Shown: one piece after another, positions 29,150 through 58,169 of the stretch
Layout: every line of letters starts with the position of its first letter
How positions within the stretch are numbered: position 1 is the stretch's first letter
Translations under genes and position numbers: made by a program
Notes under the pieces: model-generated
Seen by the model: the letters and a program-made list of their open reading frames with translations, nothing else
The model's database searches: none
What the model was told of the DNA's origin: nothing
Assembly: GCF_058153355.1 (NCBI RefSeq)
Contig: NZ_CM177019.1
Strand: one strand, 5' to 3'
Length of the DNA stretch: 64,000 bases

Positions 29150-31342
29150 ATGTCACAGGGGATGTGCATGCTGCGATGGAAACGCTGTATTATGCTAACA
29201 TTTATCTCTGGAGCTGCTTTTGCGGCTCCAGAGATAAATGTTGAGCATAAAGAATCGTTACCTGATTTAGGTAGTCAGGCCGCACAACAGGAAGAGCAAA
29301 CTAACAAGGGTAAATCGCTAAAAGAGCGTGGTGCCGATTACGTCATTAACTCTGCCACGCAAGGGTTTGAAAACCTGACACCCGAGGCGCTGGAGTCCCA
29401 GGCCAGAAGCTATCTGCAAAGTCAAATTACCTCTACGACACAATCTTATATTGAGGATACACTCTCCCCCTACGGTAAGGTCCGAACGAATCTTTCTCTT
29501 GGTCAGGGCGGCGATCTGGATGGCAGTTCCATCGATTATTTTGTTCCCTGGTATGATAATCAAACTACTGTTTATTTCAGCCAATTTTCTGCACAACGAA
29601 AAGAAGATCGTACGATCGGGAATATTGGGCTTGGTGTAAGACATAATTTTGATAGATGGTTATTGGGTGGAAATATATTTTATGATTATGATTTTACCCG
29701 TGGGCATCGCCGTTTAGGTTTAGGTGCCGAAGCCTGGACTGATTATTTAAAATTCTCTGGCAACTATTATCATCCGCTTTCTGACTGGAAAGACTCCGAA
29801 GATTTCGATTTTTATGAGGAGCGTCCTGCGCGCGGTTGGGATATTCGCGCCGAAGCCTGGCTACCCGCTTACCCGCAGCTTGGCGGTAAAATCGTTTTCG
29901 AACAGTATTACGGTGATGAAGTCGCGCTTTTTGGCACCGATAATCTGGAGAAAGATCCCTTCGCCGTCACGCTGGGTGTGAAATACCAGCCCGTACCGCT
30001 CATTGCCGTAGGAACGGATTTCAAAGCCGGCACTGGCGATAATACCGATCTTTCTGTTAACGCAACGCTGAACTACCAGTTTGGCGTCCCGCTCAAAGAC
30101 CAGCTTGATCCTGACAAAGTAAGCGCGGCTCACTCGCTCATGGGCAGCCGTCACGACTTTGTTGAACGTAACAACTTTATTGTTCTGGAATACAAAGAGA
30201 AAGATCCCCTCGATGTCACTTTGTGGCTGAAAGCTGATGCGACGAATGAACATCCCGAGTGCGTGATTAAAGATACGCCAGAAGCAGCCATCGGGCTGGA
30301 AAAATGTAAGTGGACCATTAACGCGCTCATTAATCATCATTACAAAATCGTTGCTGCCTCCTGGCAGGCGAAAAACAATGCTGCACGTACGCTGGTGATG
30401 CCGGTTATCAAAGAAAACACCCTTACTGAAGGGAACAACAACCACTGGAATCTGGTACTGCCTGCCTGGCAGTACAGCTCTGATAAAGCCGACCAGGAAA
30501 AACTCAATACCTGGCGGGTACGCCTGGCGCTGGAAGATGAAAAAGGCAATCGGCAGAACTCCGGCGTGGTGGAAATCACCGTTCAGCAGGATCGTAAAAT
30601 TGAGCTCATCGTTAACAACATCGCCAATGTACCGGATGAGAACAATCACAGCCACGAAGCCAGCGCGCAAGCGGATGGTGTAGATGGTGTCGTCATGGAT
30701 CTCGACGTTACCGATAGCTTTGGCGACAACACTGACCGTAACGGTAATGTCTTGCCGCAGGATAATCTCAGCCCGCAGCTGTTTGATGCCAACGATAAAA
30801 AAGTGACGCTGGCGAATAAACCCTGCACCACCGAAGTGCCGTGCGTTTTTATCGCCAAACAAGATAAAGAAAAGGGGACCGTTACGCTCTCCAGTACGTT
30901 GCCCGGCACCTTCCGCTGGAAAGCGAAAGCCGCCCCTTATGATGACAGTAACTATGTTGACGTAACGTTCCTGGGTTCTGACATCGGCGGGCTGAATGCT
31001 TTTATCTACCGCGTTGGTGCAGCTAAGCCCGTCAATCTTATCGGCAACAAAGAACCGTTGCCTCTCAATAGCCGCTATCGCTTTGTGCTGTGGCGCGACG
31101 CTAACAAAGACGGCGTGTTCCAGCTTTCTGAGAAGCTCACTGACGACGAGATGAAACAGTATGACTATCAGTGGGAATTCACGGGGAATAGCGTAAATGG
31201 CAATACCGGCGCGCAAACCAATACCACGAACGTCGATATAGAGATCCCGGCAACCAACAAGGAAGCGGCAGCAAAATTTAATGCTCAGGTAACCGATGGC
31301 GTGCAGGGATACGGTTTGCAGGTCAATTACAGCAAGAAATAG
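29150..31342 (+). CDS. sinH: intimin/invasin-family inverse autotransporter (SinH-like)
   Basis: 730-aa ORF. Residues ~150–340 match the intimin/invasin beta-barrel translocator (…ERPARGWDIRAEAWLPAYPQLGGKIVFEQYYGDEVALFG…GVKYQPVPLIAVGTDFKAGTGDNTDLSVNATLNYQFG…SRHDFVERNNFIVLEYKEKD, compare intimin …LIYEQYYGDNVALF…SRYDLVQRNNNIILEYKK). Signal peptide present; first in-frame start may be downstream of 29150. Confidence 0.8.
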   Translation: MSQGMCMLRWKRCIMLTFISGAAFAAPEINVEHKESLPDLGSQAAQQEEQTNKGKSLKERGADYVINSATQGFENLTPEALESQARSYLQSQITSTTQSYIEDTLSPYGKVRTNLSLGQGGDLDGSSIDYFVPWYDNQTTVYFSQFSAQRKEDRTIGNIGLGVRHNFDRWLLGGNIFYDYDFTRGHRRLGLGAEAWTDYLKFSGNYYHPLSDWKDSEDFDFYEERPARGWDIRAEAWLPAYPQLGGKIVFEQYYGDEVALFGTDNLEKDPFAVTLGVKYQPVPLIAVGTDFKAGTGDNTDLSVNATLNYQFGVPLKDQLDPDKVSAAHSLMGSRHDFVERNNFIVLEYKEKDPLDVTLWLKADATNEHPECVIKDTPEAAIGLEKCKWTINALINHHYKIVAASWQAKNNAARTLVMPVIKENTLTEGNNNHWNLVLPAWQYSSDKADQEKLNTWRVRLALEDEKGNRQNSGVVEITVQQDRKIELIVNNIANVPDENNHSHEASAQADGVDGVVMDLDVTDSFGDNTDRNGNVLPQDNLSPQLFDANDKKVTLANKPCTTEVPCVFIAKQDKEKGTVTLSSTLPGTFRWKAKAAPYDDSNYVDVTFLGSDIGGLNAFIYRVGAAKPVNLIGNKEPLPLNSRYRFVLWRDANKDGVFQLSEKLTDDEMKQYDYQWEFTGNSVNGNTGAQTNTTNVDIEIPATNKEAAAKFNAQVTDGVQGYGLQVNYSKK

Positions 31343-31391
31343 GGTCGGCGCCATGGCTGATCGGGCCACCGCTGAATATTAATCAAGGAGA

Positions 31392-32390
31392 GTGTTTATG
31401 AAACCTGATATGAAACGTGGCCTGACAAAAGTCGCGCTCGCGTTGATGCTGGCTGGATACTGTGCCGTACCAGCCGCTATGGCGGAAGATGCCGCCTGGG
31501 TCGCCAGTGGAGCGACCGCTGAATTCGAAGGGACTATACCCTGGCTCTATCGCGAAGGGGGGAATGCCACGATTAACTCGGAAGATGCGGATCACATTAA
31601 AGTGACGTCTGATGGTAAAGGGACCCGTCCTCCAGGTAGCGAGACGGATAAACGCCTTTACTCAGGGGATACCATCACGCTGGGTTGGGATATCGGCGAT
31701 ACCGAAGGGGATATTGATGATGGTCCCGCAGGCATTGATGCGAAAACGACGGCCACTATCAAATGGTACAGCTACAGCAATAATGCGGGTGGCGATAAAA
31801 CTGAGCTGACCGCAGCGGCAGGCAAGACGAGTTATAAACTCACTGATGACGATCGTGGGCGTTATATCGGTGTTGAAATCCAGCCCATCACCCAGACCGG
31901 TAATCCCTTCGAGGGAACGTCGCTGACTCTGCTGGATATTTCAACGGCCAGCGGTGGCGGCAGCGATACGGACAATGTCGATCCCGGCCCGGTTGTGAAC
32001 CAGAATCTGAAAGTTGCCATCTTCGAGAAAGGCACCACTACCAACCTTATCGGTGGTAACACGGCCATTGCGCTTAATAAAACATATGTGGCCAAACTGT
32101 ACTCGGATGAAAACCAGAACGATAAATACGACGCAGGTACGGATATGGACGTTACCGCTAACTATGACTTTGCATGGGTCTTTAACGGTAACAGTAAACA
32201 ACTCCGTGCTGCAGGCGGTATTGCTAATGCCAGCTTCGATAACAATGACATTGTTATCCCGCAAACTAACGAAGAAGCAAGAACCAGCCTTAACGGTAGT
32301 GACCGTAATGGTAAGAGTGGTCTTGCGATCCCAGCAAACGGCGACGGCGTTCAGGGCTATACGCTGTCAATTATTTACAAACACCACTAA
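31392..32390 (+). CDS. sinI: secreted protein paralogous to the SinH C-terminal domain (SinI-like)
   Basis: 332-aa ORF with signal peptide (KVALALMLAGYCAVPAAMA). C-terminus shares clear motifs with the SinH C-terminus: YDFAWVFNGNS / YDYQWEFTGNS, IVIPQTNEEAR / IEIPATNKEAA, DGVQGYTLSIIY / DGVQGYGLQVNY. Confidence 0.6.
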   Translation: MFMKPDMKRGLTKVALALMLAGYCAVPAAMAEDAAWVASGATAEFEGTIPWLYREGGNATINSEDADHIKVTSDGKGTRPPGSETDKRLYSGDTITLGWDIGDTEGDIDDGPAGIDAKTTATIKWYSYSNNAGGDKTELTAAAGKTSYKLTDDDRGRYIGVEIQPITQTGNPFEGTSLTLLDISTASGGGSDTDNVDPGPVVNQNLKVAIFEKGTTTNLIGGNTAIALNKTYVAKLYSDENQNDKYDAGTDMDVTANYDFAWVFNGNSKQLRAAGGIANASFDNNDIVIPQTNEEARTSLNGSDRNGKSGLAIPANGDGVQGYTLSIIYKHH

Positions 32391-32499
32391 TGCGCACGAC
32401 TGCATTCCCGTAGGGGAATGCTGTTTTCCGCCTGTTTTGCTTAGCGACGCGTTAAGCAAAACAGGTTGATGTTTTGTTTATCATGTTGGAGTTTTCTAC

Positions 32500-35400
32500 A
32501 TGTCGGTATGTCTGAAACCAGGGAAAATCATTATGCTTCTGGGCATGTTGGCAGCGTTTATGCTGTCTGACTTTGCACGAGCAGGGGTGGAATGGCAGAC
32601 ATATCCTGATTCTACAGGCGAGTTTAACGGAACCGTTCCTTTTGCCGACAGCGCCAGCGTACCCGTCTATCAGGGCAGTGTTCAGCTTAATCCTGGCGAA
32701 TCTCATGATGTCGGGTTTTCTGCTAAACCGAATGAATTTAGCGTTGACGATGACGCCGCTAACCTGATTGTTGCTAATCCTCAGGACAATGAAGGCGACC
32801 AGTTTTCCACACCACCTGCGCTGCGCTGGGAAAATCAAACACCCCCTACCGTCAGCCTGGTGTGGGCCGATGCCGCCACGCCCGATGTACCCCTTAACCC
32901 ACAACCCATTGCTAACCGTAGCTTTTGTGCTCAGGGGCTCGCCGGACGCTCGCTGGTGGCCTGGCCGCAGATTGATGCGCAGCAAACCCTCCCACTGCTC
33001 TACCTGTTGACCTCGACCGGCTATCCCTATGCGGGGACGGTGGCGCTGGTGGACCAGAAAGTGACCCTGAACATCGCGCCCGCGCAGGGCGATTTAATCT
33101 CGGTGAGCGCCAGCGGTTATAACGAAACGATCGCGGCGGCAAAAACCACCGTTGGCGACACCATCACGCTCACCGTCACCACTAAAGATTGTCAGGGCAA
33201 CGTCGCGGGTAATATTCCGTTTATTATCAAACGTAAAGATGCTGAAAATCGCCAGGGGGCAGTGAATAATAGTGCGCCAGTGGTACTGGATAGCACCGAG
33301 TTAACGACGACGGCTACCGAATACCATGGCACCTCTGATGCCAACGGCACGGCCACCATCACGGTGAGCCAACCGAACGGCCCTGGCGTCAAAACGCCAC
33401 TGGTGGTCAGCATTTCCGGCATTGCGCAAACCAGCGAAACCGCGGTGATTTTTACGGTGCTCACCAGCCCGGACGCGGCGCAGGCTACGATGTGGGGCCA
33501 TATGGCGGAAACGGTAGAAGCGCACGGTTACACCTTCAGTCGACCAAAGCTGGCGGCAGAAGTCAGCAATGAAAGCGCCACGGTCGTCGATCACAACGAA
33601 ACCTGGTCCACCTTCACCTGGAGCGGCGCAGATAACCACTGCACCGTGCTGCCCGGCATGCGCCACTTCGGCGCGCTGGCGACCGTTATCCCCACATCGG
33701 TGCAGACAGTCCTTGGCTGGCCGATGCAGGGGGATTATTACTGGTCATCGCTGGCGGGCACCACCGGGCAGCACCATGCGGCGGATGTCTCTAACCGTGG
33801 TGAAACGCAAAAGCCGGATAGCACCCCGTTTCTTGTAAGCTGCGTGGATAAACCCGCGCCTGATGTCGAGCCGAAAATCGTCCTTACGCCCGAAAACTAT
33901 GATGATACGGCACAGGCGATGAAATCGCAGGTGGGCGAAGACGCCACGATGCGTCTGACGATCACCGACAATAAAAATAACGATCAACCACTGGCGTATT
34001 ACTACTTCTCGCTGCATCTGGATGACGGCGTTAACCGCAAAAATCAAACCGATTCCGCCTGGGAAGCCCATCCGGTGCAGATTACTGGTGGTTCGAATTT
34101 GCAACAGGTTGATGCTCACACCTATGAAGGCATGACCGATGTCAACGGTCAGGCTTCGCTAACCCTGAGTCAGCCCGACGGCGCAGGCGTGAAAACCCAT
34201 ATCACGGCGAAAATGCGCAGCAATTTTACGGCTACAGATGCCAAAGACGTGATTTTTACTGTGATCACCAGCCCGGACAGCGACAAGGCGCGGATGTGGG
34301 GCCATATGCGCGGCATTGTTGTATCTGGCAGTCTGTTCAAACGCCCAGTGCTGGCGGATGAAACTGAGCATGAACTGGGATCGGTGCGGGAAAATAACGA
34401 AGACTGGGCGCTGTTCGATCAAGACACCAGTATGCAGGCTGAATGCGGCGTCGGCCATACGCCAAGTCAGAGTGGGCTGGAAAGCCTTTTTTCAGCCCAT
34501 CCCGGTAACGCGATTGGCACTGAGTATGGCTGGCCCACCGCACAACAGAACTACCTAAGCGCGGTGGAGCAAGCCACGCATTCATCGGTGAATTTGGCGA
34601 ACGGAAACGTCGACAGCTACCCCGGCTTTAAGCGAAATTACCTCTCCTGTTCGGGCAATGAGATGGTCGCGAAGGTTGAAGTGAGCACCGATCACGATGT
34701 CACCCCTGGCAGCAAAGCGCAGGCCAAAGTGGGAGACACCGTCGTGATGACCGTGCGTACGGTTAACGCGCTCAATAATACCCCCGTTCCCTTTACTGCC
34801 TTCACCATCACTAAAGGCATGGGGTATAACCGAGCGGGGCTGGTGAGCGGGTTTGATGACCCGAGCAGCGGCGCAATCTCGATGAATGGCACGCAATACG
34901 GCACATCGCAGCCGTCGATGGTTTATACGGGTACGACAGATGCACAAGGCGTGGCAACGGTCGAAATAGAGCAACCACAAGGCGTCGGGCTAAGAACGGC
35001 GCTGAGCGTAACGCCGGTAAATTCCTACCTGCCGAATACCGTTAATTACAGCGTTATTTTCACCACCCCAACCAGCCCGGACGTTATTGGCGCGCAGATG
35101 TGGGGCCATATGGATGAAACGATTACTGTTGATTCATTAACCTTTACCCGGCCTAAGCTGGCAGCAGAAATCGCCAGTCCGGATGGCACACTAACGGAAA
35201 AAAACGAAGTCTGGGCGCGCGTTAGCCAGGCCAGTACGGCCATTACCAGTAAAGGCGGTTGCGGAGCCAATATGCTGCCGCGTCGCTCACAGCTCAGTGC
35301 GCTCTATGACGCTAATAACGGCAATGCGGTGCAAACCACACACGGCTGGCCGACGCAGCGTCAGCCCTACTGGAGCAGTTCCCCCGCGGATGTAACGCCG

Positions 35401-38400
35401 CACTATTACACCATTGCCCTGGATAACGGCGCACAGGCTATCGGCGGCGATACGCCGGTTTACGTCAGTTGCCTGACGACGGCGAACAAACCTGCCAGCA
35501 GCATTACGCTGGATGTGGTTGATAACGCACAGTGGGCTGCCGGAAATAACGCGGCGAAGCTGAAAAAAGGCGAAACGCTACGGGTTAAGGTAACGGTAAA
35601 AGATGCGCAGGGTAATCCGCTCACGGATATGCCATTTAAACTGAGTCGCGGAGACGGTTATACCCGCACGGGCGAAAAACATATTGCCGGTAGTGGCGAT
35701 GCGCTGGTGGCACCGGTGGTGATTAACAGTGGGCTGGCGGATGAAACGACGTTGAACGACACCGCGGGATTTTATACTGCCATGACCGGTAGCGACGGCA
35801 GCAAAATCCTCAATATTACCCGCCCGGATACTCACGGCACCAAAACGGCGCTGACGGCGACGTTGTATTCCGATGCAACAAAAAAAGACAGCCTGGATAC
35901 GATCTTTACTGTGGTCACCAGCCCGGATAGTAGCAAAGCGAAAATGTGGGGGCATATGCCGGAAACGGTGACGGCTGCGGACGGTACGGTATTTAAACGC
36001 CCGCTGTTGTTGAAGGAACTGGCCTATCAGACTGGGCGAACATCGACGTCTGAAGACAATGAAAACTGGGCGTTGTTTAACATTAATTATGCGAGTTCTT
36101 CCACGACGTATAGTGGCTGTGGAACCAACTATATTCCGACTCAAGCCGGTCTGACGTCACTGTTTGCTAATAATGCGGGCAACACCATGAAAACCGTGCA
36201 GGGCTGGCCGGTGGCAACACGCTATTTGTCCAACACGTCCGACAACGGCAGCATGGAGCAGCGTAACTACAAGGCGGTAGATCTCAGCAATGGCACGAGT
36301 GCGGCAGTGTCATCAACGGCGCTGCAACTGCTGACCTGCCAGACCACGCCGGTAACCACGGTGGGCCAAATTCTGCTGGAAGCGGCAGATCCGGCGACGC
36401 TGGATACCACCTATAACGTGGTAAAAGCGAAAAAAGGCGAAGAATCCGTGGTGCGCGTCACCACCAAAGATACGCAAGGCAACCTGGTGGGCAATACGGC
36501 ATTTATCCTGACGCGTGCCAACAGCGTGAGTCGGGCTAACGCATCAGCAACCGCGAGCGTGGGCGCGCTGACGGTGACGGATGCTTGGGGAAATACGCGA
36601 AATAATTTCCAGTCGACGAGTGAAACGATTTACGGCGTGACTGGTGCAGACGGGTCAACGACATTTACCCTGAAACAGGATAACAGTACCGGGTTAAGAA
36701 CCGATCTCACGGCAAAACTGGATACGTCCAGCAGCGTCAAGGCGACGCTACCGGTGGTCTTTACTGTCGTGACCAGCCCGGATTCGCCAAAAGCGAATTT
36801 TTGGGGACATATGGCCGAAACGGTGATGGCCTCCGACGGTACAATCTATAAACGACCACTGTTGTTGAAAGAGCTGAGTAACACCAGTGGTCGAAATTCT
36901 ACGGCTGAAAACGGTGAAGATTGGGCAAGATTCACCTGGACTCAGTCGGCTGACACCAGCATGAATGGGTGTGGTACAGATTATATGCCGACGCTGGATG
37001 GACTGAAGTCTTTGTATGACGCCAATAGCGGTAATGTGATGAGTACGGTGCAGGGATGGCCGGTAAAAACGACCTATCTCACCAATACCCCGAGTGATAC
37101 GCAAACAGGGAGCCGTTACTACAATGTGGTGCAACTGAATACTGGTGCAGTCTCACAAATCTCGACGAACACAGTCGTGCTACAAACCTGCCGCACAACG
37201 CCGTTGACGGCTGCTAGCCAGATTACGCTGGAGGCCTCAGACCCCGCGCAATTTGTCAGCATTGACAGTACGCTTAGCGCGATCAAAGTGCAGAAAGGCG
37301 ATAGCGTGTCGATCCGCATTTCGACTAAAGATGCACAGGGGAATTTAGTCGGCAATACGCCGTTTGCCCTGAAACACGCTAACCCGGTCAATCGCCAAAA
37401 TGTGGCGTCAACATCGCAGAAAGTGTCGGTCACGACTGCGTCGGGTACGACGGTGGATACCACTGCATCGACCATTCTGTATGGCGTGACCGGGCCAGAC
37501 GGAACCACCACGATGACACTCCGACAGGATGCGTCTACTGGACTCAAAACCGACTTTTATGCTCTGTTGAACGATACCGGCGTGTCGTCGAACACCTTGC
37601 CAGTGATCTTCACCGTCGTCACCAGCCCGGATACACCGCTGGCGGCCAACTGGGGGCATATGGCAGAAACCTTTACCAGCAGCAAGGGAGTCACCTTCAA
37701 ACGGCCTTTCCTCAAAGCTGAACTTTCTGGTGGTACGGCGGTAACGACCAATAATGAAGTCTGGTCGCGCCTGACAGCAACGGAGAAAACGGATGCCAGC
37801 AAGGCTGGGTGTGATGAGAGTTATCAACCGCTGATGACTGACATGCAGGGGTTGTATGCGGATTACCCTAACAACCAGTTGGGCACGGTGCTCGGCTTGC
37901 CGACTTCCGCCGGGTATATGTGGGCCTACGACATGATGACGGTTTCTGGCAGCAGCTGGAGCAACCAGGCATATTCGCTCGTTAATGGTCAGACAGTTCA
38001 GGCATCGTCCAGTTATACGGCGGTAGTGATGTGCCTGGTGGAACCGCATACCGTTCCGGCGATGATAGAGATCACTTCAACAGCACAGGATGCGGCAAAA
38101 ACGGTCAGCAATGGTGGTCGACCGAGCGCCGTAGCGAAGAAAGGTGAGACGATTCCGCTGACGGTGACCGTACGTGATAGCACCGGGAATCCGGTACCCT
38201 ACGCCGACTTTACCCTCACGCGTGGAACGACGCTGGATCGCTCGAAAGCAACCGTTAACTCGAGTGCGGACGATCTTACCGTGAAGTCATTGATACCCGC
38301 GAACAGTGACGCTGGGCTGACGGCAAATGGGGCAAAAGTGCTCAGAACAACGGGCAGTGATGGCACAGCCACCTTTGAAGTGAGCCAGAATGCCACGACA

Positions 38401-40590
38401 GGACTGGCGACCCCCATAACCGTCACGCTGGCGCGTGATGTAACCAAAACCGCCACGCTGGATGTTATCTACACGGTGATAACCAGCCCGGACTCACCGA
38501 GCGCGAAATTCTGGGGGCACATGCCGGACACCTTTACCAGTTCGGCAGGCGTCACCTTCAGACGACCGCTGCTGAAAGCCGAAGCGACTTCAGGGTCATC
38601 GATTAGCACTAACGGCAATGGTGAAGTGTGGTCGTATATGAGCAACGTTCAAAATTTAACATCGACAGATTGTCCGCTGGAGAATCAACCGCGCAGTAAT
38701 GAATTGTTGGATTTGTATAATGATCATCCCAACGGCGCGATAATGACTGACCTGGGGCTGCCGATATATGCAGGCAAGTGGTGGGCTTATGATATGGTCA
38801 TGCCGGATTTATATACGTGGCAGTATCAGACGGTCAGCCTGAGCGCAGGAGATATCGCGAAGAGCTCGGCAAGCAACGCGCTGATGCTTTGCCTGACGAA
38901 GCCGCATCCGGCAGGCGTCAGCGTAATGTTGACGTCATCCGCAATGGATAACGCCAGAACCCTCAGTAATGGCGGGCGACCCAGCGCGTCAGTGAAAAAA
39001 GGTAACCCACTGCCAATTGTGGTGACGGTCAAAGATCGTGATGGCAACCCGCTGGCGGGAGAGGCCGTGACGCTCAGGCGTGGTTCAGCGATGAGTCGTT
39101 CAGGAGCAGGAGTGGGCACGCCGGCAAATGCAATGACGTTGACAGAATTGACACCTGTGTCGGCGGAGTTTTCTCTGGCCGCACACGATACGCAATGGCA
39201 AGGTTTCACCGGCAGTGATGGTACGGCCACTTTCAATGTTGAACAGCCTGAGACCATCGGCCTGGCCATTTCGTTCACCGCTATACTGGCGCGAGATGTA
39301 GCAACTACCAGCGTCCTTGATGCGATCTTTACCGTCGTTACCAGCCCGGATTCCGCAATGGCGACCTACTGGGGCCATATGCCGGATACGGTAACGGCGG
39401 AAAACGGCGTGGTCTTTGAACGGCCTAAATTGTTGAAAGAGCTGCCGTCGAGCGCCGGAGTCAGTCAGGTGACGGATAACAATGAAGTGTGGCCGTTGTT
39501 TAAGGCAACGCAAAGGGAAGATAGCAGCCTCAGTCCTTGTGAAGCGGCACGTCGGCCATTGAGCGATGATTTATTATCGCTCTACGCGCGCTATCCGGGG
39601 AACACGCTGACGACTCAAATCGGCTGGTCTACGAAGTATGCATGGTGGGCACTGGATAACAAGCAGGGGAATGCCCTGGTTGTCAGTCTGAATAATGGTT
39701 TTGAGTCGTCGACGGCGAGTACGGGGTATCAGGGATGTCTGGTCAATCCCCGCGCGACCGTCTCCAGCGTCACGCTGACATCGACGGCGCTGGATGCCAC
39801 TACGCAGGCAGCGAAGGTAAAAAAAGGTGAAGCCGTGCCCCTCGTTGTTACCGTAAAAGACAACGCCGGGAAGCCGGTACCGAATGTCGCTTTCACCTTA
39901 AAACGTGGTGATGCCATGCCACGTAACAGCGGGGCGACGTTGTACGGTGATGTTGCGGCGATGGATGATATGACGGTACAACCTGCCAGCGGGACGGTGG
40001 TAACGCTGGCTGACAGTGGGAATACGGTCGACGGAGTGACTGGGGCGGACGGTACGGCAAGTTTTACCGTTCGTCAGGATAATACGCCAGGATATAAAAC
40101 GCCGTTGACGGTGACGCTGACGGATAACGCCACAATAACGGCGATGCTGGATACGATTTTCACCGTCGTTACCAGTCCAAATGTACCCACAGCCCATTTT
40201 TGGGGACATATGTCGGATACCACTGTGGTAAACGGTAAAACGCTACATCGTCCACAGTTGGAATCAGAACTGCCATCGGCAGCCATCATGGTGGCAACAC
40301 CGAACGTCAATAATGAGACGTGGGCACTGGCGCATACTGTTGACTCGCAAAAATGGGATATTTCGCAGCAGTGCGGCCTCCTTGATTTTGCACCGAATTA
40401 TGCGGATTTAGAGGCTCTGCACACTAACTTCAGTACTCTCGGATGGCCGTCAATGCCTAATACCCCCTATCTATCTAAAGACAGAGAGCGGTCAGGTAAG
40501 TATTACTGCGGTATGATTGAAGAGACAGGTTCTCAATCTTGCAGTATTGAGCCTACCAGCACGCCGGGATTTGCTACTTGTGTCAGGTAA
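32500..40590 (+). CDS. ratA: giant repetitive surface protein, RatA-like (2696 aa)
   Basis: Single uninterrupted ORF with N-terminal signal-like hydrophobic segment ([17 protein letters not shown]) and nine tandem modules each carrying the motif [IV]FTV[VI]TSPD-x6-WGHM…RP.L…E.W…GCG…GWP…C. Confidence 0.75.
33000..40300 (+). repeat. nine tandem ~840-bp coding modules inside ratA
   Basis: TSPD-WGHM motif DNA (accagcccgga...tggggncatatg) recurs at about 33465, 34267, 35065, 35915, 36773, 37623, 38483, 39343 and 40173, period ~800–860 nt; the copies are diverged, not identical. Confidence 0.7.
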
Positions 40591-40634: not shown

Positions 40635-42041
<1,407 letters not shown>

Positions 42042-42090
42042 TTATTCAGTCGATAGTAACCCGCCCTCCGGGGATAGCAAGCATTTTTTG

Positions 42091-42135
42091 CAAAAAGGGG
42101 TAGATGCAATCGGTTACGCTCTGTATAATGCCGCG
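42091..42135 (+). promoter_or_regulatory. guaB promoter (-10 TATAAT at 42124..42129)
   Basis: Perfect TATAAT hexamer ~45 nt upstream of the guaB ATG, with an A/T-rich upstream tract; -35 not confidently assigned. Confidence 0.45.
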
Positions 42136-42172
42136 GCAATATTTATTAACCACTCTGGTCGAGATATTGCCC

Positions 42173-43639
42173 ATGCTACGTATCGCTAAAGAAGCTCTGA
42201 CGTTTGACGACGTTCTCCTCGTTCCTGCACATTCTACCGTTCTGCCGAATACCGCTGACCTCAGCACCCAGCTGACGAAAACTATTCGTCTGAATATCCC
42301 TATGCTCTCCGCAGCAATGGATACCGTAACGGAAGCGCGCCTGGCTATCGCCCTGGCTCAGGAAGGCGGTATCGGCTTTATCCACAAAAACATGTCCATT
42401 GAACGCCAGGCTGAAGAAGTTCGCCGCGTGAAAAAACACGAATCTGGCGTGGTAACCGATCCGCAGACTGTTCTGCCAACCACGACGCTGCGCGAAGTGA
42501 AAGAGCTGACCGAGCGTAACGGTTTTGCAGGCTATCCGGTTGTGACCGAAGAAAACGAACTGGTCGGCATTATCACCGGTCGTGACGTGCGTTTTGTTAC
42601 CGATCTGAACCAGCCGGTTAGCGTTTACATGACGCCGAAAGAGCGTCTGGTAACCGTGCGTGAAGGCGAAGCCCGTGAAGTGGTGCTGGCAAAAATGCAC
42701 GAAAAACGCGTTGAAAAAGCGCTGGTGGTTGATGATGAATTCCACCTGATCGGCATGATCACTGTGAAGGACTTCCAGAAAGCGGAACGTAAACCGAACG
42801 CCTGTAAAGACGAACAAGGCCGTCTGCGTGTAGGTGCAGCGGTTGGCGCAGGTGCGGGTAACGAAGAGCGTGTTGATGCGCTGGTTGCCGCAGGCGTTGA
42901 CGTTCTGCTGATCGACTCCTCTCACGGTCACTCTGAAGGCGTTCTGCAGCGTATCCGTGAAACTCGCGCTAAATATCCTGACCTGCAAATCATCGGCGGC
43001 AACGTGGCAACAGCTGCAGGTGCCCGCGCGCTGGCAGAAGCCGGTTGCAGTGCCGTTAAAGTGGGTATCGGCCCAGGTTCTATTTGTACTACCCGCATTG
43101 TTACTGGCGTCGGTGTACCGCAGATCACTGCCGTTGCTGACGCAGTAGAAGCCCTGGAAGGCACCGGGATTCCGGTTATCGCTGACGGTGGTATTCGTTT
43201 CTCTGGCGATATCGCCAAAGCTATCGCTGCTGGTGCAAGCGCGGTGATGGTAGGTTCCATGCTGGCGGGTACTGAAGAATCCCCAGGTGAAATCGAGCTC
43301 TACCAGGGCCGTTCTTACAAGTCTTACCGTGGGATGGGCTCTCTGGGCGCGATGTCCAAAGGTTCTTCTGACCGTTACTTCCAGAGCGACAACGCTGCCG
43401 ACAAACTGGTGCCGGAAGGTATCGAAGGCCGTGTAGCCTACAAAGGTCGTCTGAAAGAGATCATTCACCAGCAGATGGGCGGCCTGCGCTCCTGTATGGG
43501 CCTGACCGGCTGTGGTACTATCGACGAACTGCGTACTAAAGCGGAGTTTGTACGTATCAGCGGTGCGGGCATTCAGGAAAGCCACGTTCACGACGTGACC
43601 ATTACTAAAGAGTCCCCGAACTACCGTCTGGGCTCCTGA
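42173..43639 (+). CDS. guaB: IMP dehydrogenase
   Basis: ATG at 42173 gives 488 aa [21 protein letters not shown]...; CBS pair and catalytic loop [11 protein letters not shown]. Confidence 0.95.
42378..42386 (+). promoter_or_regulatory. consensus DnaA box (TTATCCACA) inside the 5' part of guaB
   Basis: Exact 9-mer TTATCCACA ~200 bp downstream of the guaB start. Confidence 0.35.
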
Positions 43640-43707
43640 TTCTCTTCGCCCGACTTCATGTCGGGCGATTTATATTATCTGTTTCACTTGCCTCGGAATA
43701 AGCGTCA

Positions 43708-45933: not shown

Positions 45934-46452
45934 TTAGCTCTTTTCAGGACATTTGGTATTTGGCTGAATACGCGTTTCGTTATACGTCGTGGTAATAACA
46001 ACGGCTAAACCTGTCGTAAACTGGCACTCTTTACCCACCTGGGTGGAGGTATACACTTTGGTGCCTTCCTTATACGTTAGAGAAACACCTTCCACTAAGG
46101 TTTTATCATTCACCATAGAACCTGCTGCCGCGCCAACAGCTCCGCCGCCAACTGCACCTGCCGTCGTTCCGGAATTGCTGCCAGACCCCACGTTGTGGCC
46201 GATAACACCGCCAGCGACTGCACCAATAAGCGCGCCGAAGGCTTGTGCGTTTCGTTTATTTTGGGAGTTGTCTACGGCAACTTTTGCGGGAAGAATGGAA
46301 ATAATATTAACGGTTTTAGTTTCTTGTTTGGTATTCAGTTGATCGGTTTGATAAACATCGGCGGCATGATCATCAGCATTTGACTGGCATCCTGCCAGAG
46401 TGAATGACGCTAACATTGCCACAGGTAGAAGACATTTTTTAAATTTCATCAC
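45934..46452 (-). CDS. yfgH: glycine-zipper outer-membrane lipoprotein YfgH
   Basis: 172-aa ORF with lipobox (LAGC) and Gly-rich GxxxG tract. Confidence 0.8.
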   Translation of the reverse strand: MMKFKKCLLPVAMLASFTLAGCQSNADDHAADVYQTDQLNTKQETKTVNIISILPAKVAVDNSQNKRNAQAFGALIGAVAGGVIGHNVGSGSNSGTTAGAVGGGAVGAAAGSMVNDKTLVEGVSLTYKEGTKVYTSTQVGKECQFTTGLAVVITTTYNETRIQPNTKCPEKS

Positions 46453-46762
46453 TATTCCTTGTTATACACATTACGAAAAATAAGACATTTAAGATCATCA
46501 AAAGAGGAAAGTAAATGTATTGCGTATAAAGGAATAGATTAAATTTATTAAAATTCATGTGGAAAATAATTTATAAAAATACATCATTAAAACATATGTA
46601 TTAATTTTATATTTATTTCGCAGCCAAACAGGATAAACATCAGTCAGGACAAAGACGTAAAATTTAAGATGAAAGAATATCTGCCGCTTTGATAATCCCA
46701 AAGAGCAAAAGCATCCGACAGCGAGGTGCCGTTATGTTCTGTGAAAGTGGAGAAGGTAACCG

Positions 46763-53370: not shown

Positions 53371-54008
53371 TTACTCGTCGGCAGCGTAGCCCTGCGGCGG
53401 CAGACGTTGACCATCCAGCCACGCGGCGTTTTCGTGCATTTTCAGACGACCATCGGCAAACCAGCTAATCACCAGTGGATAAATAGCGTGTTCCTGGGTT
53501 TGCACGCGGGCGGTGATGTCATCCTCCGTATCACCAGCAAATACCGGGACTTTCGCCTGTAAAATAACCGGGCCACCGTCCAGTTCATCGGTGACGAAAT
53601 GCACCGATGTACCGTGCTCTTCATCGCCATTTTCCAGCGCCTGACGATGGGTGTGTAATCCGGGATATTTCGGCAGCAGAGAAGGGTGAATATTCAGCAA
53701 ACGCCCGGCATAGTGGGAGACAAACGCCGGGCTGAGAATGCGCATAAAACCAGCCAGCACGACCACATCGGGTGCGTACATGTCGATTTCATGAATCAAC
53801 TCCCGGTCATAGGCTTCACGACTGTCAAACGCGCTGGCGATGAGCGTATGCGTTGCAATACCCGCCTGGCGGGCGCGTTCAAGGCCGAACGCGTCGGCCT
53901 TATTGCTGAAAACTGCCCGTAGGGTGCCTTTAATTTTGTTGGCTTTGCAGGCGTCAATTATTGCCTGCAAATTACTTCCGTTGCCGGAAATAAGCACCAC
54001 AATATTCA

Positions 54009-54009
<1 letters not shown>
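53371..54009 (-). CDS. purN: phosphoribosylglycinamide formyltransferase
   Basis: 212-aa ORF MNIVVLISGNGSNLQAII...; start overlaps the purM stop. Confidence 0.95.
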
Positions 54010-55064
<1,055 letters not shown>

Positions 55065-57422: not shown

Positions 57423-58169
57423 GTGGTAAACTTCTCGCGATTTTGTGAAATCCTGGTTGAGGTATCTCTGAACACACCGGCACAGCTCTCTTTGCCACTT
57501 TATCTTCCTGACGACGAAACCTTTGCAAGTTTCTGGCCGGGGGATAACTCCTCTTTACTGGCCGCGCTGCAAAACGTGCTGCGTCAGGAACATAGCGGTT
57601 ACATTTATCTCTGGGCACGCGAAGGCGCGGGGCGCAGTCATCTGCTGCACGCGGCTTGCGCGGAATTGTCGCAGCGTGGCGATGCGGTGGGCTATGTCCC
57701 GCTGGATAAACGCACCTGGTTTGTTCCGGAAGTGCTCGACGGTATGGAGCATTTGTCGCTGGTCTGTATCGACAACATTGAGTGTATTGCAGGCGATGAG
57801 TTGTGGGAGATGGCGATTTTCGATCTCTACAATCGAATTCTGGAATCGGGTAAAACACGGTTGTTAATCACCGGCGATCGTCCACCGCGGCAGTTGAATC
57901 TGGGATTACCGGATCTCGCGTCGCGACTCGACTGGGGGCAGATCTACAAATTGCAGCCTCTTTCTGATGAAGATAAGTTGCAGGCGCTACAGTTACGCGC
58001 GCGTTTGCGTGGTTTTGAACTGCCGGAAGATGTGGGGCGTTTCTTGCTGAAGCGGCTCGACAGAGAGATGCGCACGTTATTTATGACGTTGGATCAGTTG
58101 GATCGTGCGTCGATTACCGCGCAACGTAAGCTGACCATTCCGTTTGTGAAAGAAATTCTGAAACTGTAG
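57423..58169 (+). CDS. hda: DnaA-inactivating AAA+ protein Hda
   Basis: ORF track 248 aa with AAA+ box and position after uraA; the true start may be an internal non-ATG codon, so the 5' end is uncertain. Confidence 0.8.

Follow-up and report, generated by a model that had tools for sequence, protein, structure and literature searches.

The guaB locus and its DnaA box

The window, i.e. the whole 64 kb stretch of DNA analysed here, carries guaB, encoding IMP dehydrogenase, and an exact DnaA box within its coding region. The guaB annotation is shared by all matching E. coli genomes. The features on which the analysis is based are the following, with coordinates in the window unless stated otherwise.

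42173..43639, plus strand: guaB (IMP dehydrogenase), 488 amino acids plus stop, translated from the ATG at 42173
42378..42386, plus strand: DnaA box TTATCCACA, exact consensus, R1/R4 type, single box, flanks t...a
42377..42388, plus strand: guaB codons 69-72, TTT ATC CAC AAA, translated as F-I-H-K
42124..42129, plus strand: TATAAT, the likely -10 hexamer of PguaB, placed from the sequence and from the description of PguaB in the literature
42120..42128, minus strand: weak DnaA-box-like 9-mer TTATACAGA, one mismatch to TTATNCACA, overlapping the -10 hexamer
NC_000913.3 2633857-2633865, complement: the guaB box of K-12, coordinates computed

The box is located on the sense (non-template) strand of guaB, and its first base is nucleotide 206 of the coding sequence, which bears out a previous sequence-only reading that had placed an exact box about 200 bp into the gene. 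It consists of codons 69-72 less one T at the 5' end and two A's at the 3' end, i.e. TT-ATC-CAC-A, and the encoded F-I-H-K belongs to the invariant G-F-I-H-K-N-M motif of IMP dehydrogenase. With all nine bases of TTATCCACA present, the site is of the high-affinity R1/R4 type. No other exact copy is found in the window, and the count shows no excess over chance, as dinucleotide shuffles yield 0.51 exact copies per window (at least one copy in 37 of 100 shuffles) and the 32 exact boxes published for MG1655 correspond to about 0.44 per 64 kb. The relaxed consensus TTATNCACA occurs twice, compared to 2.16 expected. The second of these matches, TTATACACA at 46462-46470 on the plus strand, is intergenic, between yfgH and yfgG, and occupies positions 10-18 bp 5' of the start codon of yfgH (45934-46452, minus strand). 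Its sequence and context are the same in K-12 and in strain R32_14_1F.

Two further open reading frames overlap the gene. An in-frame ATG at 42104, 69 nucleotides 5' of the true guaB start, leads mechanical ORF callers to a 511-residue product; this ATG falls within the promoter, 3' of the likely -35 and 5' of the -10 element (42104-42172, plus strand). On the opposite strand, a 471-residue antisense frame (42176-43591, minus strand) covers nearly all of guaB, with one stop codon in that frame, and is most likely a 'shadow' ORF arising from guaB codon bias rather than a gene.

This part of the window corresponds to the Escherichia xseA-guaBA locus and is matched by 5425 of 5426 complete E. coli genomes. 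At the DNA level, guaB of the window is 94.7% identical to that of K-12, 93.5% to that of the E. albertii type strain and 99.2% to that of 'E. coli' R32_14_1F. Over the locus, the identity with the E. albertii type strain drops to 91.4%, yet GuaB matches the E. albertii protein at every residue (100%). E. albertii, suggested by the identical protein, was rejected as the source because of these DNA values. Across the 2.1 kb from 41600 to 43700, at least 99% identity is reached in 11 of 5425 'E. coli' genomes, and 4122 fall between 90 and 95%. By sequence, the window belongs to a divergent, unusual Escherichia lineage.

We note three features of the surroundings. An island at 29150-40590 (plus strand) separates yfgJ and xseA and encodes SinH (an intimin-like inverse autotransporter of 730 residues), a SinI-family protein (332 residues) and a 2696-residue adhesion-domain protein; it is absent from K-12, where yfgJ directly abuts xseA. 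Downstream of the guaB box come purMN (53371-55061, minus strand), at a distance of about 11 kb, and, about 15 kb away, hda (57468-58169, plus strand), whose product inactivates DnaA-ATP. The placement of hda and purMN reflects a normal K-12-like gene order, and no link to the guaB box was seen.

The promoter region and a weak upstream box

A consensus promoter scan did not call PguaB because its -35 element is poor, and the placement of the promoter therefore rests on sequence identity to K-12, with one base different from MG1655 across the region in the alignment, and on the literature. Transcription would start about 7 nucleotides 3' of the -10 hexamer, at about 42136-42137, which would place the intragenic box roughly at +242 to +250, i.e. 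about +245.

A DnaA site overlapping the guaB core promoter was described by Husnain & Thomas 2008, and TTATACAGA is probably that site. The corresponding sequence TCTGTATAA is found in 46 of 80 species, a conservation that is confounded with the -10 element and with an overlapping PurR site. By the criterion that identifies TTATACAGA, the window holds 45 one-mismatch 9-mers, and hence the match alone says little. An exact TTATNCACA occurs within 110 nucleotides 5' of the guaB start codon in 5 of the 80 species, Escherichia not being among them, and TTATCTTTTTCACA-like sequences are present in the guaB 5' UTRs of some Serratia and Yersinia.

The box is the known K-12 element

Alignment with MG1655 reveals the same 9-mer, in the same codons and at the same position (nucleotide 206). 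Compared with the DnaA site mapped at gua in K-12, as the sequence-only reading had suggested, the box of the window is orthologous and identical base for base. The intragenic guaB box is thereby already known, with a published record that goes back to 1992. DnaA-dependent repression of the gua operon is credited by later papers to Tesfa-Selase & Drabble 1992 (Mol Gen Genet), and specific in vitro binding of DnaA to the guaB box is reported in the title of Tesfa-Selase & Drabble 1996 (Eur J Biochem). The element studied by these authors is the same as the one described here, the host lineage being the sole difference. The guaB box goes unmentioned in a TraDIS essential-genome paper.

Among E. 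coli genomes the box is nearly fixed, with at least 5410 of 5425 (at least 99.7%) carrying it intact. The surrounding 31-mer is exact in 5028 genomes; another 382 differ from it by AAT in place of AAC five bases 3' of the box, and the box is kept in all five of these variant genomes that were sampled. Such near-fixation is expected at within-species divergence and is no sign of selection.

DnaA occupancy in vivo and the missing partner box

Binding of DnaA in growing cells has been mapped by ChIP-seq in MG1655 using SPA-tagged DnaA (PMC11317965, 2024). The study identified 16 bound regions, none of them within guaB, and it names the gene explicitly, as one whose single, perfect consensus box is unbound and which probably lies outside the DnaA regulon. 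DnaA occupancy of the guaB box is consequently absent in these data, obtained in LB only, which is the very observation that the sequence-only reading had named as speaking against its proposal. The cells were unsynchronised, grown at 37 C to mid-log phase (OD600 0.65) and contained C-terminally tagged DnaA; being a single condition, the experiment would miss weak, transient or condition-specific binding.

In the same data, 13 of the 32 exact TTATCCACA sites of MG1655 are bound, a second box is found 2-3 bp away in 15 of the 16 bound regions, and guaB is not among the 2427 best double-box matches. In the window, no partner box is present 2 or 3 bp from the guaB box in the same orientation on either side, since the four 9-mers at these spacings differ from TTATNCACA at 7, 7, 7 and 4 positions; the guaB site is thus not a double box. 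The double boxes at purH, nrdA and nrdD (PMC11317965) resemble guaB in that an exact TTATCCACA is associated with a nucleotide or purine synthesis gene. However, they are situated in promoter regions, have the second box 2-3 bp upstream and display 14- to 124-fold ChIP enrichment, none of which applies to guaB. At the level of the proteome, a 2025 study in which the DnaA-ATP level or DnaA titration was perturbed, with datA/DARS mutants (PMC12371093), found most of the DnaA regulon unchanged.

Coding constraint and evolution of the box

We analysed a guaB codon alignment of 80 species, comprising Enterobacterales and a few Pasteurellaceae. The FIHKNM peptide is invariant in 80 of 80 species while its codons vary, and whether the box exists therefore depends on three synonymous positions alone. 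Each of their eight possible combinations is represented, with TTATCCACA in 25 species, TTATTCACA in 16, TTATTCATA in 11, TTATCCATA in 10 and the four TTC forms in 18 altogether. Given F-I-H-K and the codon usage of guaB in the window (TTT 5/9, ATC 22/32, CAC 9/10), the probability of the box is 0.34, higher than for any other encoding of the peptide.

Neither slower evolution nor covariation of the three synonymous positions was found among the 80 species, and in these respects the box does not behave as a selected element. The positions vary independently, with 22.7 boxes expected from the marginals against 25 observed (Fisher p 0.42-0.82). On a neighbour-joining tree of the 80 species built without the box codons, Fitch counting gives 13, 21 and 20 changes at the three box codons, i.e. 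54 in sum, with 47.7 as the mean over comparable triplets (P(sim <= obs) = 0.79); at comparable sites the medians are 16 for two-fold pyrimidine-ending codons and 18 for Ile codons. The exact box has been gained or lost at least 18 times on this tree. Retention of the complete set of window codons is likewise ordinary: for random comparable triples of invariant-residue codons, the number of species that keep all of them averages 19.5 (5-95% range 5-39), and it is 25 or higher for 31.5% of such triples. A simple neutral-retention null predicts 18.8 species against the 25 observed (P = 0.06), a marginal excess that vanishes under the empirical column-based null.

Considered individually, the ATC frequency of 0.57 and the CAC frequency of 0.64 at the box columns are mid-distribution among columns, whereas TTT reaches 0.78 at the box column against 0.37 gene-wide in guaB. 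Of the nine guaB Phe columns with conservation of 95% or more, five are TTT-rich, so the box Phe column is no outlier. Across the 80 species, the TTT share in guaB depends strongly on the base that follows (0.65 if it is G, 0.43 if A, 0.08 if C and 0.06 if T).

Cys in guaB has a similar next-base tendency, with TGT at 0.78 before A, and individual guaB Phe columns remain TTT-rich or TTC-rich across the order. Two further null models were considered and set aside. A naive null based on the guaB codon usage of each species predicts 8.5 boxes against 25, an apparent threefold excess that stems from TTT only and was rejected as evidence of selection. A context-aware null (2.9 boxes expected) is unreliable, since outside the box column His precedes A only 4 times and Phe precedes A 61 times.

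Discussion

Based on the sequence comparisons and the published functional data, we propose that the guaB box is probably an incidental match to the consensus, brought about by coding constraint and with little or no regulatory role. As guaB must encode the invariant F-I-H-K, and as TTT-ATC-CAC-AAA is the gene's most probable encoding of these residues, the box would emerge from the coding sequence itself and would not be retained as a regulatory site. Being a lone box without a partner at 2-3 bp, it would bind DnaA in vitro and not be stably occupied in growing cells, and its effect on guaBA transcription under ordinary conditions would be little or none. For this proposal the sequence, the orthology with K-12, the coding constraint and the absence of selection at the free positions were computed here, the in vitro binding and the missing ChIP signal are taken from the literature, and from there we infer the absence of a regulatory function. 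Counting against it are the reported repression of gua (1992) and the reported in vitro binding (1996). The sequence-only reading was right that DnaA regulation of gua has been reported, and this very box is named there, yet its description of the box as a plausible site for such regulation is weaker than it sounds, given that there is no ChIP signal, no adjacent box, ordinary synonymous evolution and a regulon that is mostly unchanged.

The original proposal, in which DnaA bound at about +245 halts or slows elongating RNA polymerase, or acts together with the weak box at the -10 element, so that high DnaA(-ATP) lowers guaBA expression and couples guanine nucleotide supply to replication initiation, is in our estimate unlikely, and it keeps its weight mainly because ChIP was performed in one condition and the older genetics is known via citations. 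The literature lists gua as negatively regulated by DnaA, the 1996 title adds specific binding to this box, and DnaA roadblocks do exist at asnC/mioC and probably at datA. The asnC-mioC roadblock (Schaefer & Messer 1988, 1989) is the closest precedent: as in guaB, a box of the form TT(A/T)TCCACA is found on the sense strand of a transcribed region, and the guaB box is located in the transcription unit 3' of its promoter, in the orientation relative to transcription of the natural, active asnC boxes. According to the title of Schaefer & Messer 1989 the transcription block is orientation-dependent, and since asnC and guaB share the orientation, it is no bar to a roadblock. However, the asnC-mioC site comprises two boxes 3 bp apart on the asnC sense strand, TTAATCCCA-tac-TTTTCCACA, is intergenic and is bound in ChIP-seq (coverage 25), whereas the guaB box is single, intragenic and unbound, and like the asnC/mioC site 15 of the 16 regions bound in vivo have double boxes. 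A one-mismatch box overlapping the -10 about 250 bp upstream, the near-fixation in E. coli (at least 99.7%) and the binding of DnaA in vivo at other nucleotide-synthesis genes (purH, nrdA and nrdD) are in line with regulation. Against it, the three free positions lack purifying selection across the 80 species, the box has been lost repeatedly in close relatives (Enterobacter, Kosakonia, Leclercia and Phytobacter), no intrinsic-terminator-like feature is present near the box, and most of the regulon does not respond to DnaA perturbation.

Alternatively, the box may serve passive titration without local regulation: the chromosome has about 300 boxes, each holding DnaA for short times, and this one would add to the buffering of the free pool. 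Such a role accords with a consensus high-affinity 9-mer and with the experimental support for chromosomal DnaA titration (PMC12371093), and it requires no conservation of single sites, which fits the repeated gain and loss. We nevertheless consider it quite improbable for this site, as ChIP-seq detects no occupancy (PMC11317965), guaB is remote from oriC, near which boxes are enriched, and the share of one site would be negligible and indistinguishable from an incidental match. A role at the RNA level, in which UUAUCCACA in the guaB mRNA acts as an 'rDnaA box' through which DnaA influences transcription or translation, on the model suggested for the his leader, is the least credible of these accounts and would come as a great surprise. 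The position on the sense strand does place the motif in the guaB mRNA, and one paper proposes DnaA binding to RNA boxes in hisL. The authors of that paper, however, saw no in vitro binding and call their evidence inconclusive; moreover, local RNA folding at the guaB box is nothing unusual (z = 0.45), an Rfam scan around the box matched no family, and the site is inside a translated ORF with synonymous sites that are not conserved. It is also very improbable that the box is a conditional regulator missed by the LB-only ChIP-seq, acting either as an Escherichia/Citrobacter-specific roadblock in slow growth, under purine limitation or in a narrow cell-cycle window, or as an RNA-level 'rDnaA box'. 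Of these conditional versions, only the one acting on RNA would be new, the roadblock being the proposal of 1996.

In conclusion, an incidental origin of the box through coding constraint is the interpretation that we favour. As a discovery the site carries small weight, and what is added here is the evolutionary test, which agrees with the 2024 ChIP-seq (PMC11317965) and supports dropping guaB from the DnaA regulon. The case illustrates that a perfect transcription-factor consensus within a gene can be the likeliest way to encode a conserved peptide (P = 0.34 for the guaB box), and that an intragenic consensus should be read as regulatory only together with evidence of occupancy or conservation.
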